This document shows positions 3,709 to 8,507 of a DNA stretch of 64,000 nucleotides, one piece after another. How positions within the stretch are numbered: the first letter of the stretch is position 1; each line of letters begins with the position of its first letter. A program made the position numbers and the translations under genes. A model generated the notes under the pieces. It saw only the letters and a program-made list of their open reading frames with translations, was not told where the DNA came from and made no database searches. This DNA is from Rhizodiscina lignyota (taxonomy: Eukaryota). The stretch spans positions 2,480,001 through 2,544,000 of the forward strand of contig ML978121.1 of assembly GCA_010015805.1 (NCBI GenBank), written 5' to 3'.

Positions 3709-6106
3709 TTAAGTCCTGCGTCCCGCCTTAAGCAGCTCCTGCCAAGCCAAATCCAATCCTCTCTTGACCTCTCGATAACTGACGACAAGCACATTCTGCT
3801 CATCCCGACTCGTCAGCACAACCTTCTCCTCGCTGCCCGCATCCAACTTGTTCAGGCACCCAATGACATGCGCCAAATCGGTGACCGGTGCCCCGCGCGC
3901 GTCCACCTGGTGGAAGACAAAGTCGCGGAACAACTTCAGGTAGTATCGCTCGCCCGTCTCGCTCCACTGTGACTGCTCGAAGAAGTCTGGGCGCTCGTTG
4001 ATCATGTTTAGCTTCGTCATGAGGCGCACAATACGGCCATTCTCGAGTTCGCGTGAGAGCACGGAGGTCAGCGTGTCCTCGGCGTGGAAGGTGTTGTCGA
4101 GGACGGCAGTAACCTGCGCGGCGATCTCGGATATGAAGATATCGATGGACTTCAAAGTCTGCTGGTTAGGTGTGGTCGGGGATGTTGGGCTGAGAGGGGT
4201 CGAGGGTGGAGGCGCTGGGCTGAGTAACCAGTTGACGCAGTCCTTAAGACGTGGACTGTAGAAGCGGGTTAAGGTGTCGAAAGATTTCTGCGGGTTCTGG
4301 AGAGGATTGATATTGTGGCTGGCAAGTGCGAGGACGAGTCTGCCGAGTTGGATCAGATCCTCTTGCTGCAGCTCGCTAACGCTTCTTTGAGCCTCGTACT
4401 GGACCACGTCGAGGATACCGCAGGAATTGAGGCGAATACGGCCTTTGGAGGTTATGAGAACCTTTGTTGGTGAGATGACCTGTGCAGCTAGTCCATTGCT
4501 ATGGATAGCCTTCAAGGCAGAAGCGATCTGAACGATGTAGCTCCACAGATCTTGCTCCGGGATAGCTTGAGGAGAGGGACGGGTTCCTGGAAATCGGCCA
4601 GCCTGCGTGAAGAAGTGCTCCGCAAGCGTCTTAGCCAGCGGATGATAATCGGTAACGAAGACGAGAGAGCTATCACCAAATGCTCGAGTGGTGATTGCGG
4701 CGTGTACTGAGACTACACCGCCATTTCGGATACGATTCCAAGGGCGCACAGCGCGAATAGTTCGTTCGTCTGTCAGTTTGTAGCCTTCAAGCCTTCGGAG
4801 CGCATAAGTGGATCCATCTTTGCTGGAAACTGCTTTGTAGATCCAGGTAGGATACCCAAAGAGCAACGCGTTCCTCTGGTGGTTGGTATCCAATGGAACG
4901 AGAGAGTGAAAGACATCAACCTGCGCAGGCAGTGACGATTGAGGGAGAATTTGGCGCGTAGCCTCGGATTTGCGGTGCAGGTCTTCTCTAAGATCTTCTG
5001 GGATAAAGAAATCATAGGCAGTGCGTTGGTAATCGAGGAGATGTTCCTTCGATGGGCCGGAAGGTGCATAGAGGTGGTACTGAAGCGGTTGTGCGAATCC
5101 GTTGTTCGGTTGAAAGAACTGTGTACCGGCGAGATTTGCGGCATCTTGTGCAGCATAAGGGTTGATCTGAGCGTTCTGGTTGCCATTTGACATGCCAGGA
5201 ACAGGTGGTTGGACCGTAAAAGGATCATAAGAGTTCAGCATGGATTGCTGAGCATTCATATCTTGCTGTACGCCGAAATTTAGCTGCGTATTTGCAGGGT
5301 CTAGGCAAGCGTAAGTCAATCATGTAGAAGGAAAATCAAACTCACAATTTGCGTAACGTCGTACGCTCCGGGGATGAACTCCTGGAAGTCGTGGGAGCCC
5401 CATTCTGCCGATGGTTCTCGGACCTGTGGGACAGGGGGTGCGGGCGCGGGTGTAAAATTCGCTGTCATGAAAAAGTCAGTGTCTTTGATCTTAAAAACAG
5501 CTTTGTCGCAGTAGTCCAGGTGGTGAGAGAAACACACCGGTTTTGGTAGACTTGGGCGTGAAGATTGCGGCGCTGGCTGCCTTCGGAGATATCGCTGCAC
5601 TCCCGATTCTAGAGGAAGATCCAGAGTTCAGTCCATTGGCCGAAGGTTGAAGAGGGGTGAAAGAGGGTGAATCAACATTGAGTCGTTTTCTTAAGCTATG
5701 TACGTTTAGGTATAAGTATATGAATTGAAGATGGAGGGCCTTTGATTTTCGAGGCTAACCTATCGTTATTGTTGTTGTTGTTCTGCATGGTGGGTGGCTT
5801 TGCTGTCTTTTCATGGAGAAACGCGCAACCTAAGCATCACGGTTAGCATGAGTTGAGTAATTGAACGCAGAGGGGGCGCGTACCATCATTCTCATATCGA
5901 CAATGGCCGTAAATGCTCACGTTTCGGCATAAAGTGTTCTTTGCGTTCTCTGTTGCTCCCGTATCAACAATCTTGTTTACTTCCCACGCGTCTTCTACCA
6001 GTGTTGTTTCCACTGGCACCAATCAAAACATACCGCGTCCTTTTGGTCTTGGTGAGGAGATATTGCGACGCGTGTCACCCGAGCCACCACCAATTGTTGT
6101 TGCCAT
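3709..6106 (-). CDS. PAN3: PAN2-PAN3 deadenylase subunit PAN3 (CCCH zinc finger, PAM2-like motifs, pseudokinase, C-terminal knob); at least 5 introns
   Basis: CCCH finger CRNVSIYGHCRYENDGCAFLH rebuilt across introns. PAM2-like LNVDSPSFTP and FQEFIP. Pseudokinase FGDSSLVFVTDYHP. C-terminal ELENGRIVRLMTKL...WSETGERYYLKLFRDFVFHQVD. Confidence 0.95.
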
Positions 6107-6909
6107 GAAAGGCGAGGGATCGCGCGGAGAGGATCGAGGTCCGGAAGCGCCCGGTGACGTCTTTGAGCGCTTGCGTGTAGTGCCTCCTACGTATTGAAAA
6201 GTGTCTCGAGCTGGGTGTGTTGGAAGAGTGTGGAGGTTTCCATAGGTTAAAGCTTTTGGTTTCGAATTCGGCCTTGGCACTGCGGGTATTGAAGGTCCAA
6301 GGCTTGGAGTAGGCTGACACGCGGATGTAGGACCAGGCTCGCTCGCTGAATCTTGAGGGAAGCTTTGAGGTTCATCTACGCCTCTCTCGTGCGAGGCTGG
6401 AACGCGAGTCTCTTCAATGTGCTCCGCGGGGCGTTCCTCCGAGGCTTCGGCGTTCGTTTTGCATTGACTGGATTTGGTTGATCTTCTGCTTTTGAATTAG
6501 CGCCATCTTTGAACAGATCCGCCCAGAGGTGCCCCATTGCTGGTTCATATTCCCCGAGTATGCGGCATGGGAGGGTCAACATACGGCGTCAAGTGGTATC
6601 AGGGACGCTGGGTGGCGCTCCCGGTCAATGATCCTTCCTTGAAAGGCACTCGCCTGGTGATGCGTAAGGGACGATCCATGAGCGTTGGAAGGAGCAGGTG
6701 TCGGGATGGGGGGGATGGTGGTGAAGAGCAAGCGATCCACGCCCGCATATGGCCTTTCAGCGCGATGCAGCAGATCTCCGAACACGCGCGCCAAGAAACG
6801 TCACTCCCGCGCCGCATGGGAACATTTCAACACGTTCACCTTGGATAAATGCTCCCCATCAACAGCGCAATTTCTCATCAACTTCATTCTTTATTTCAGA
6901 GCTCCTACG

Positions 6910-8507
6910 ATGGCGAGCTCTGGCGCGGATCTCTCGAGGCTCACCGAAGACCAGCAGCTCGCTTTGCAGCAATTCACCTCCGTTACTGATCAAGGCCACG
7001 AGGCAGCAATACCATTATTGGAGCGCTGTCAGTGGAATGTGCAGGTAAGAGTTTGGTAGACTTAACATATATTGGATAATACTAATTCTTACTCAAGATT
7101 GCAATATCGCGTTTCTTCGATGGAGAACCCGCCGACCCTGTCGCAGAGGCGATCGACAATGGCCCTCCACCAGCCGATATCAGGCGACAGGAGGTGCTCA
7201 TGAATGGCTTCTCCTCCGCACGATCCTCATCTTCTCGAAACAGAGATCTCGAACCTGCGCCACGGATAGTTCCACAGCCGGAAAACCAACAGCTCGCCCA
7301 GCCAGCACCACTTGTACTATCCCTCCTCTTCGCACCCGTCAATCTTCTCTACAGCGTCCTCTCCAAGACTTTGGGCATAATAGGCTACCTATTTCCCTTC
7401 CTTCCTCGGTTGCTCAATCGCATCTCCGGCCGAACGCCCTCACGAGCCTCCCGTGGCAATACCAGCGGCCGACGACCACTCAACTCCCGAGACACAGCAG
7501 CTCGCTTTATCCGCGAGTTCGAGGAGGAATACGGTAGCAACACACTTCAATTCTTCGAGAATGGCTACGCACAAGCGTACGACACCGCAAAACGGGAGCT
7601 AAAATTCCTCCTCGTGGTACTCCTCTCTCCTGAGCACGACGACACCTCGTCCTTCGTCCACGACACTCTTCTCTCCTCCGAAGTCAGCACTTTCCTCTCA
7701 AATAACAAGGACAATATCATACTCTGGGCCGGCAATGTGCGAGACCCGGAAGCGTACCAGATTTCGACCGAGCTGAACTGCACCAAATTCCCTTTCTCTG
7801 CGCTCATTGTACACACGCCGAGTCAGTCATCGACATCAATGTCCACAGTACTCCGGATAACAGGGCCGACACCCGCAGGGTCGTACGTGTCGAAACTGCA
7901 AGCGGCGATCGCACAGCACTCTGCCGACCTCGATCGGTCGCGAGCAACAAGAGCAGAGCAGCAGGCAGCACGCGATCTACGGCAGCAACAGGACACAGCA
8001 TACGAACGATCACTGGCACAAGACCGAGAGCGCGCGAGGCAGAAACGGGAGGCGGAAGAGGCACAGCAACGTGCAGAGCAGGAGGCGAAAGAGCGCGAAG
8101 AAGCAAAAGAGAGAGAAGCGCAAAATCTCGAGCAATGGAGGAGATGGCGGGCGAAGAACGTAGCACCGGAACCTGGAGCTGATGTCAAAGATGCTGTGAG
8201 AATCAGCGTCAGGATGCCCGATGGGGAGAGGGTAGTGAGAAAATTCGGTGCTGAGGCCGAAATGGAGGAGCTGTATGCTTTCGTGGAATGCTATGAGATC
8301 CTGAATGCCGGAGAAATTGCAGAGGATGTAGAGAAGCCGAAGAACTTCAATCACGAGTACAAATTCAGACTTGTCAGCCCGATGCCGAGACAAGTGTATG
8401 AGCTTGCGGAGGGTGGGAATCTGAAAGAGAAAATTGGGCGAAGCGCGAATTTGATTGTGGAGAGGACGGATCTAGCAGATGACGAGGAGGAGGAGGAAGA
8501 AGATTGA
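6910..8507 (+). CDS. UBA-UAS-UBX domain Cdc48/p97 cofactor (FAF2/Ubx2/Ucp10-like) with hydrophobic hairpin
   Basis: Exon 1 6910-7044, intron 7045-7097. UBA-like ALQQFTSVT...LLERCQWNVQIAISRFF. UAS AKRELKFLLVVLLSPEHDD. Coiled coil. UBX RISVRMPDGERVVRKF...LVSPMPR. Confidence 0.9.

Follow-up and report, generated by a model that had tools for sequence, protein, structure and literature searches.

The 64,000-nucleotide stretch of Rhizodiscina lignyota DNA analysed here (the window) carries on its minus strand a gene that the public annotation starts at ATG 6106. PAN3 brings the PAN2 nuclease to the poly(A)-binding protein, and the PAN2-PAN3 deadenylase shortens mRNA tails. When the protein P0002 was threaded on the window it gave the exons listed in Table 1, separated by coding introns of 54–84 nt, and it is 100% identical to the main PAN3 exon. 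Pfam matches P0002 at zf-CCCH_PAN3 in residues 27–54 (E 2.7e-15), the N-terminal CCCH zinc finger, and at Pan3_PK in residues 535–672 (E 1.7e-59), the C-terminal Pan3 pseudokinase/knob. The gene is thereby identified as a Dothideomycete PAN3. The closest PAN3 beyond the window shares 72% protein identity, and the closest locus compared as DNA is 59–65% identical. A divergent gene with a UBX domain lies upstream, an arrangement (opposite strand, upstream of PAN3) shared by 22 of the 26 loci where a UBX match was obtained. Its first exon limits the putative shared promoter to approximately 180–230 nt above the CT tract that directly precedes ATG 6679. A CT-rich tract likewise stands ahead of the first ATG in the PAN3 leader of locus L056.

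Table 1. Features of the PAN3 locus and its leader (positions in the window).
Feature	Position	Strand	Remark
Annotated PAN3 CDS, 679 aa	3709..6106	minus	public model; start ATG 6106
PAN3 exons	6106-6034, 5949-5884, 5829-5760, 5695-5538, 5461-5346, 5265-3709	minus	P0002 threaded on the window
Leader exon 2, 126 codons, no stop, no ATG	6107..6485	minus	shares the PAN3 frame; candidate N-terminal extension, disordered
Out-of-frame uORF, 18 codons	6187..6243	minus	ATG 6243
Out-of-frame uORF, 42 codons	6247..6375	minus	ATG 6375
Out-of-frame uORF, 16 codons	6414..6464	minus	ATG 6464
Three tandem AG acceptors, 3-nt spacing	6483..6490	minus	ends 6489, 6486, 6483; best is the CAG at 6486
Predicted canonical leader intron, 99 nt	6486..6584	minus	GTATGT...CTAAT...CAG
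Candidate alternative GC-AG intron, 168 nt	6486..6653	minus	from sequence logic
Branch-like CTAAT	6496..6500	minus	its TAA is the stop bounding the open frame upstream
Canonical donor GTATGT	6579..6584	minus	GCC/GTATGT, G at 6584
uORF1, 26 codons	6599..6679	minus	ATG 6679-6677 to TGA 6601-6599; shares the frame of ATG 6106
Candidate GC donor GCGAGT after CAG	6648..6653	minus	exon would end at 6654
Pyrimidine-rich tract immediately 5′ of ATG 6679	6680..6732	minus	putative PAN3 transcription-start region
Divergent UBX-domain gene, first exon	6910..7044	plus	UBX domain in large exon 7086-8504

The initial annotation had proposed that alternative splice donors in the PAN3 leader switch an upstream ATG between a short uORF and an N-terminal extension of PAN3, and every coordinate that it gave for the leader was correct when rechecked on the sequence. 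ATG 6679-6677 is indeed in frame with ATG 6106, and it opens a uORF of 26 codons that encodes the peptide given there and is closed by TGA 6601-6599. Both donors are present, CAG/GCGAGT with its first G at 6653 and GTATGT at 6584; the latter hexamer also begins coding intron 1 of PAN3. The branch-like CTAAT at 6500-6496 is followed by the CAG ending at 6486, 11 nt past the branch A, which is a distance suited to a branch site and YAG acceptor. The short out-of-frame AUG uORFs, described there as several, are three, with ATGs at 6464, 6375 and 6243.

The two donors would have different consequences. By the logic of the sequence, splicing from 6584 to 6486 would keep TGA 6601 and so leave uORF1 closed, and GC-AG splicing from 6653 to 6486 would remove this TGA and fuse the first 9 codons of uORF1 to the extension. 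Because both donors share the same phase, the frame is kept with either splice, and after the canonical splice uORF1 and the extension are parted by TGA 6601 only. No other in-phase donor was found in the leader, which makes the GC donor the sole AUG route into the extension frame.

How readily such signals arise by chance was assessed on shuffled sequence. A strict GT[AG][AT]GT..CTRAY..YAG intron pattern occurred in 46 of 5000 shuffled leaders and an in-phase GC[AG]AGT within uORF1 in 215 of 20000 shuffles, frequencies that, like the p-values for the open frame given below, are optimistic because the tests were devised after the sequence was seen. The motif AGGCRAGT as such is not enriched: counting both strands, the 64-kb window has 3 copies (the GC donor at 6653 among them) against 4.1 expected. 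Outside the GC at +1/+2, CAG/GCGAGT has a near-full U2-type consensus, as GC-AG donors do, and the branch site and acceptor that go with it are ordinary. About 1% of introns are GC-AG in the accounts of PMC7072748 and PMC3033335. A point of difference is that a perfect GT donor sits inside the proposed GC intron, 69 nt downstream of the GC donor, and the GC intron of 168 nt is double the longest PAN3 coding intron. The GT donor at 6584 would be expected to compete strongly with the GC donor at 6653.

The frame of ATG 6106 is open from 6496 to 6107, a run of 130 codons with no in-frame ATG, and the 126 stop-free codons that had been claimed downstream of the acceptor were verified. Dinucleotide shuffles left this frame free of stops in 840 of 20000 cases when the region was shuffled and in 89 of 5000 when the leader was shuffled, and an open frame of this length upstream of ATG 6106 is thus moderately unlikely to be due to chance. 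Its composition was compared with a null of 1738 stop-free shuffles obtained from 40000. The fraction of hydrophobic residues in the extension is 0.138, compared with 0.207 +/- 0.024 in the stop-free shuffles (p 0.004), and T occupies codon position 2 in 14 codons rather than 23.5 (p 0.0006). The periodicity chi2 of 14.7 has p 0.02 among stop-free shuffles, and values of at least 14.7 were reached by 4.2% of 602 non-coding windows of the 64-kb stretch. As a calibration, all six proven Pleosporales-type PAN3 extensions tested gave p values of at most 0.04 for periodicity and at most 0.067 for hydrophobicity. The non-coding-looking leader frames of L056, L024 and L043, used as controls, gave p values of 0.15–0.91 and 0.28–0.35, respectively. 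GC1, GC2 and hydrophobicity of the extension (0.57, 0.63 and 0.14) are close to those of true extensions (0.51–0.66, 0.62–0.69 and 0.11–0.16). The extension frame is hydrophilic and poor in T at codon position 2, and this frame-specific pattern favours a coding exon 2.

Codon choice gives a different picture. The extension scores -0.026 for synonymous codons, compared with +0.055 (sd 0.056) for coding and -0.058 (sd 0.047) for non-coding windows, and all PAN3 main-exon windows score at least +0.012. GC3 is 0.45 in the extension and 0.60–0.80 in true extensions; among 102 hydrophilic coding windows from the same genome, 17.6% are as low as the extension. In synonymous codon usage and GC3, the extension looks non-coding. 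Since the frame above ATG 6679 looks non-coding by eye, the coding signal appears to begin at about ATG 6679.

Searches for relatives of the extension found none. Pfam contained no family matching the exon-2 extension, and word-index searches returned no homologues. HMMER against 1.84 billion representatives gave a single match, a 2447-residue repeat protein that we did not accept as a homologue and took for low complexity, as it matched in 24 stretches. Comparison of the extension with 21 known PAN3 extensions gave a profile E of 0.82 (in a one-sequence database) and phmmer E values of at least 3.8, and tblastn detected no in-frame similarity between the window extension and known extensions or P0021.

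N-terminal extensions of PAN3 are nevertheless present elsewhere among Dothideomycetes. Among the 120 PAN3 homologues listed, 21 have 147–216 additional residues immediately preceding the conserved Met; long Pleosporales forms include P0118 of Parastagonospora nodorum (831 aa) and P0084 of Alternaria tenuissima (849 aa). At the DNA level, 13 stop-bounded Pleosporales-type loci hold 191–269 open codons before this Met, and in L003, a cDNA-like contig, the PAN3 frame is open to the 5′ end. The pN/pS of the Pleosporales-type extension is 0.42–0.68 in eight pairs, and the extension is kept across genera. Collectively these comparisons show that PAN3 N-terminal extensions of about 190 residues are conserved across Pleosporales yet inconsistently annotated. 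Among titles and abstracts on Pan3 N-terminal extensions in fungi we found nothing on those of Pleosporales. A poor start context (T at -3, Phe/Leu before Met) was considered as a marker of extension and rejected; a pyrimidine at -3 is found also in loci with just 2–30 open codons.

Like the long Pleosporales forms, the stretch in the window is hydrophilic and disordered, lies directly before the conserved Met-Ala-Thr of the zinc-finger region and has the same GC1, GC2 and hydrophobicity. It differs from them in its lower GC3, in having no detectable sequence similarity to them and in being free of ATG, whereas all but one of the 13 stop-bounded Pleosporales-type loci possess an in-frame ATG of their own 102–268 codons upstream. 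The Pleosporales-type locus L027 resembles the window in having no contiguous ATG. In L027 an out-of-frame ATG 691 nt upstream encodes the first four residues of P0118, which suggests a short upstream coding exon and an intron; enumeration of donor/acceptor pairs gave many open solutions, none of them unique.

A different kind of leader is seen at L056, L024 and L043. These are long and rich in upstream ATGs, they show intron-like signals, and a short uORF ends in them at or just before the donor; they also contain long open frames that lack a coding signal. Gloniaceae-like relatives do not keep the similar leader frame, which counts against a coding exon 2: that of L024 is interrupted by an in-frame TAG and differs from L056 by a 1-nt indel. 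The best local alignment score between the leaders of the window and L056 is 21, with a shuffle mean of 21.9; because this score is at shuffle level, the architecture common to the two leaders is not backed by sequence similarity.

We tentatively favour, at somewhat less than even confidence, a spliced PAN3 leader in which exon 2 encodes a lineage-specific disordered extension, GC-AG splicing joins it to AUG 6679 and use of the GT donor gives a uORF-bearing transcript. In this model the 570 bases that precede the annotated start would be a transcribed and spliced leader, with transcription presumably starting above 6679. Exon 2 (6485-6107) would be translated into a hydrophilic, disordered N-terminal extension of PAN3 specific to the lineage. 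If donor 6653 is joined to the CAG acceptor at 6486, ATG 6679 would feed this frame and PAN3 would gain 135 residues. Use of the stronger-looking GT donor at 6584 would retain TGA 6601, so that ATG 6679 would open the 26-codon uORF, followed by the three other uORFs, and without reinitiation by ribosomes PAN3 would hardly be made from such a transcript, if at all. Donor choice in the leader may in turn be regulated.

The strongest competitor is an ordinary non-coding leader, in which PAN3 starts at ATG 6106 only, a 99-nt 5′UTR intron and four uORFs damp translation, and coincidence accounts for the open frame, for its composition and for the GC motif. The non-coding-like codon usage and GC3 agree with this, as do the failure of word-index, HMMER, profile and tblastn searches to find a homologue of the extension and the public PAN3 model, which begins at 6106. 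L056, L024 and L043 show that long leaders which have many upstream ATGs, a short uORF near the donor and intron-like signals occur alongside long open frames free of coding signal, and the present case was selected out of very many genes. However, several independent coincidences would be demanded: 0.018–0.042 for the open frame, 0.011 for the in-phase GC consensus, and one in three each for the in-frame upstream ATG and the in-phase donor. The frame-specific hydrophilic pattern, missing from the non-coding control frames, would have to be a further coincidence, and with four upstream ATGs before the main AUG PAN3 would be poorly translated. We regard this explanation as rather unlikely, though one to be taken seriously.

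Exon 2 could also be translated from the canonically spliced mRNA, with initiation at a non-AUG codon or by ribosomes that reinitiate once past uORF1. The coding-like signal of exon 2 and the better splice signals of the canonical intron are consistent with this, and a long, AUG-less leader frame open in frame with the main ORF and overlapped by uORFs is also the layout of Neurospora cpc-1 as described by Ivanov et al. 2017 (PMC5487733). That account describes conserved near-cognate codons in optimal context, kept across Pezizomycotina. In the window, none of the 10 in-frame near-cognates between TGA 6601 and ATG 6106 has both a purine at -3 and G at +4, and none is CTG; the best are ACG 6457 and GTG 6280. 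Translation by such a route would leave the in-phase GC donor as a coincidence, at the 215 of 20000 given above, and we consider it distinctly improbable.

Slightly less probable again is a relic, in which an ancestral long isoform was made from ATG 6679 or an earlier ATG through an in-phase GT intron, a recent nonsense change at 6601 closed it in this lineage or strain, and what is left is the short form that starts at ATG 6106. An in-phase canonical donor is present, a single stop breaks a frame otherwise continuous from ATG 6679 to PAN3, and the amino-acid pattern is still coding-like while codon bias is weak, all as expected of a relic. Such a state, though, needs a short time window before further decay; the low GC3 is unexpected for a freshly lost coding exon, and the GC donor turns into a coincidence. 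The stretch is also identical in one DNA run, as a contig showing no splice joints, though that run may be the source of the assembly itself. Ribosomal readthrough of TGA 6601 on the canonically spliced mRNA, fusing uORF1 to PAN3 across the one stop in the frame, is very hard to credit: the leaky stop context is UGA-C and here the next base is T, no promoting structure was seen in the leader fold, and we know of no fungal mechanism that fuses a uORF to the main ORF by readthrough.

Returning to the favoured spliced leader, the closest known parallel for its two donors is Neurospora crassa NMT1, which the initial annotation had cited as a gene where an alternative 5′ splice site governs inclusion of a uORF. 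This precedent is real (PMC3597705). As reported there, two 5′ sites and one 3′ site lie ahead of the main ORF, one product keeps a uORF, and the retained uORF blocks the main ORF; in the window the likeness is at the level of sequence. The alternative site of the window is a GC donor whose product would be a fused longer protein, whereas that of NMT1 is a uORF-free leader. NMT1 is also driven by a TPP riboswitch. In the window, Rfam gave no match at E <= 1 between 5700 and 7100, and the fold of 6700-6470 is no more stable than shuffles (z = +0.64), so that a donor-masking structure is not indicated.

The proposed splice switch thus fared unevenly. Its anatomy is exact and the exon-2 frame is coding-like, but codon usage and GC3 are non-coding-like, no Rfam element was found in the interval searched and the fold is ordinary. 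The last two results lend regulated donor choice no support, and on all these points together the switch is a hypothesis. A genuine two-state device, in which the GC splice would give an 814-residue PAN3 and the GT splice a four-uORF mRNA, is in our estimation unlikely. If it exists, the 814-residue protein would have a basic NLS-like cluster in its disordered front, the four-uORF transcript would be poorly translated or degraded, and 5′ splice-site choice could set the dose of a deadenylase subunit, or its isoform and localisation, possibly with feedback from mRNA decay. On that view Dothideomycetes would have invented a long PAN3 repeatedly, as the extensions of Pleosporales, of the organism of P0021 and of the window are not homologous.

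If the extension is not real, the locus is a calibration case showing that coincidence can produce an open leader that is long and clean and has splice-like motifs. If it is real, the public PAN3 model of Rhizodiscina lignyota is short by 135 residues because gene finders skip GC donors, and the AUG-less open leaders of other genes merit the same test. Rep and colleagues are said to have observed in 2006 that GC-AG first introns give truncated fungal gene models. The coexistence of long and short PAN3 could change mRNA tail metabolism, since the human isoforms Pan3L and Pan3S, which differ in a disordered segment near the N-terminus, are described as acting oppositely on the binding of PABP and on the activity of Pan2 (PMC5558910); there the difference is an internal 55-residue exon and in the window it would be an N-terminal extension or a uORF.

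The main exon of PAN3 in the window is 100% identical to the annotated protein P0002 (679 residues; source name PAN3, Rhizodiscina lignyota), in which the Pan3 pseudokinase domain and the PAN3 CCCH zinc finger are both present. Threading P0002 on the window gave six exons, with coding introns of 54–84 nt and the donors GTATGT, GTACGC, GTTAGC, GTGTGT and GTGAGT. Rhizodiscina is placed in the Aulographales in PMC7082219, where use of the JGI pipeline is also stated; poly(A) binding by the Pan3 zinc finger is reported in PMC4158885, and human Pan3 isoforms are described in PMC5558910.

The initial annotation had proposed that a choice between a GC and a GT donor could switch an upstream AUG between a uORF and an N-terminal extension of PAN3. 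When we re-read the window sequence, all of its coordinates proved correct: the 26-codon ORF that begins at ATG 6679, both donors, the branch-like site and the acceptor are in place, and the frame of the PAN3 ATG is stop-free from 6496 to 6107 and contains no in-frame ATG. The upstream bounding stop of this frame is the TAA within the branch site, so the open frame spans all of leader exon 2. The two donors share one phase, and the canonical splice of 99 nt likewise leaves the uORF in the PAN3 frame, TGA 6601 being all that separates the two. Among the 11 donor-like hexamers in 6035–6900, GT occurs in the one at 6584 only; 6653 is the only right-phase GC site upstream of the stop, matching the full consensus except for the C, and no other in-phase donor was found in this interval. 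A single branch-like site is followed by acceptors. Further ATGs in frame with ATG 6679 lie upstream in a shared 75-codon open frame that has a hydrophobic translation and takes in the CT-rich tract; these ATGs probably lie in the promoter.

Features of the PAN3 leader and its neighbour (window positions)
Feature	Position	Strand	Remark
PAN3 coding region	6106 to 3709	-	six exons
Leader exon 2 (candidate extension)	6485-6107	-	126 stop-free codons
Acceptor CAG	end 6486	-	common to both donors
Branch-like CTAAT	6500-6496	-	
GT donor GCC/GTATGT	6584	-	
GC donor CAG/GCGAGT	6653	-	
uORF	ATG 6679, TGA 6601	-	26 codons
Upstream in-frame ATGs	6748, 6817	-	
Open frame around these ATGs	6826-6602	-	75 codons
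UBX-domain gene	start 6910, region 6910-8504	+	divergent from PAN3

In chance tests designed after the case was seen, a stop-free frame of such length arose in 840 of 20000 dinucleotide shuffles of the region and 89 of 5000 of the leader, a strict GT[AG][AT]GT..CTRAY..YAG intron in 46 of 5000 shuffled leaders, and an in-phase GC[AG]AGT in 215 of 20000 shuffled uORFs. AGGCRAGT is found at 3 sites on both window strands versus 4.1 expected.

Two measures speak against leader exon 2 being coding. With training on 14 long ORFs from the window, the synonymous-codon score of the candidate extension was −0.026, with means of +0.055 (sd 0.056) for coding and −0.058 (sd 0.047) for non-coding windows and no PAN3 main-exon window below +0.012. 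GC3 was 0.45 versus a mean of 0.57 for coding DNA here; of 102 hydrophilic coding windows in this genome, however, 17.6% have a GC3 as low. Hydrophobicity, depletion of T at codon position 2 and periodicity count for coding when compared with the 1738 stop-free shuffles among 40000: the hydrophobic fraction is 0.138 versus 0.207 ± 0.024 (p 0.004; 0.25 and 0.22 in the other two frames of the exon), T occupies position 2 in 14 codons versus 23.5 (p 0.0006), and the three-base periodicity chi2 of 14.7 exceeds that of the shuffles (p 0.02), being reached by 4.2% of 602 non-coding windows and lying at the 20th percentile of coding windows. For calibration, six Pleosporales-type extensions gave p 0.000–0.040 for periodicity and 0.000–0.067 for hydrophobicity, whereas the open leader frames of the related loci L056, L024 and L043 gave 0.28–0.35 and 0.15–0.91; L005 was coding-like, L038 intermediate and L002 hydrophobic. 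In this calibrated test the candidate extension of the window groups with true extensions, which it matches in GC1, GC2 and hydrophobicity and from which it differs in GC3. We consider it probable that leader exon 2 is coding now or was so recently.

Window-like leaders also occur in relatives. L056 and L024, which are ~97% identical and both have the UBX neighbour, show a CT-rich tract, a first ATG with a 23-codon uORF, its stop just before a donor-like site, and then a GCTAAT branch and CAG. Their donors are weak (GTATTG, GTAGGC) and, unlike in the window, the upstream ATG is out of the PAN3 frame; the frame that stays open in L056 is interrupted in L024 by a TAG, and the two differ there by a 1-nt indel. 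Alignment found no sequence similarity between these leaders and that of the window. In L043 an 8-codon uORF ends exactly at a GTATGT donor. A uORF with a leader intron behind it may therefore be the common state of PAN3, which supports the view that the window's leader is transcribed and spliced. We also observed that a 200-base block of L056 and L024 (602 to 403 upstream of the PAN3 ATG), which runs from the last part of the first uORF through the intron-like stretch into leader exon 2, is 100% identical between them, while its flanks differ by ~3–7%. In both, a 30-codon uORF that begins 92 bases before the PAN3 start codon closes with a TAA whose last A is shared with that ATG (TAATG), a layout typical of termination-reinitiation.

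It is possible, and we propose it tentatively, that a GC-AG splice from AUG 6679 would yield a long PAN3. GC-AG introns in Neurospora were reportedly the subject of a study by Rep et al. in 2006. The proposed splice in the PAN3 leader calls for an uncommon intron type with a perfect GT donor lying within it, and it must explain the non-coding-like third positions and the missing extension homologue. About 1% of introns are given as GC-AG in PMC7072748 and PMC3033335, and NMT1 is described with an alternative 5' splice site and uORFs (PMC3597705). A plain non-coding uORF leader, which the layouts of L056, L024 and L043 support as well, is less likely; it needs the open frame, the frame-specific composition, the in-phase GC consensus and the in-frame upstream ATG to be independent coincidences. 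Entry from a non-AUG start, for which the AUG-less extension of cpc-1 (PMC5487733) offers a precedent, is improbable; the 10 in-frame near-cognate codons after the canonical splice include no CTG and none with both a −3 purine and +4 G. An Rfam search and folding against shuffles found no riboswitch or unusual structure in the leader. That the extension is a recent relic is quite improbable, and readthrough of TGA 6601 is highly so.

Of the 80 related loci, 26 gave a UBX match. In 22 of these (L001, L024, L056, L038 and L043 included) the gene sits upstream of PAN3 and is read from the other strand, the arrangement of the window and a divergent pair kept across many Pezizomycotina; in L006, L020, L021 and L028 it is downstream. 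It was not seen upstream of PAN3 in Pleosporales-type loci carrying the long extension. In the genomic contig L001, PAN3 (6136–8271) adjoins the UBX gene and is intronless, with 712 codons in one frame and a leader likewise without intron-like signal, as expected if all introns were lost at once. In L038, at 174 bases ahead of the conserved Met, an in-frame start codon in strong context (GACCATGG) would lengthen PAN3 by 58 residues.

The collections searched contain no close relative: the best foreign PAN3 is 72% identical, and the 80 metagenome loci show 39–65% identity. Sequence searches, HMMER over representatives and comparison with 21 known PAN3 extensions found no homologue of the window extension. 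Pleosporales PAN3 (L007–L021, L027, L061 and L078; proteins P0028–P0118) carries a conserved disordered extension of ~150–220 residues, ~570–800 bases upstream of the conserved Met, and public models within this order are split between long (816–885 aa) and short (656–673 aa, from the conserved Met) forms. In L027, close to the Parastagonospora nodorum protein P0118, an out-of-frame ATG 691 nt upstream encodes the first four residues of P0118; in Parastagonospora-like fungi the extension is thus probably fed by a short coding exon further upstream, joined to it across an intron. Many donor–acceptor pairs would give an open frame in L027. Stop-bounded Pleosporales-type loci keep 191–269 open codons before the conserved Met in 13 cases, and a fourteenth stop-bounded locus, L002, has 115; an in-frame ATG lies 102–268 codons upstream in 12 of the 14 and is absent from L027 and L002. 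Loci of other classes have only 2–30 open codons there. Extension pN/pS is 0.42–0.68 in 8 pairs. In L003, a contig without introns, the frame is open to the 5' end, which fits a long-form mRNA. Among the matches listed, the conserved Met is immediately preceded by 147–216 additional residues in 21 of 120 homologues. Such homologues and loci show that PAN3 tolerates extensions at exactly the position of the candidate extension in the window.
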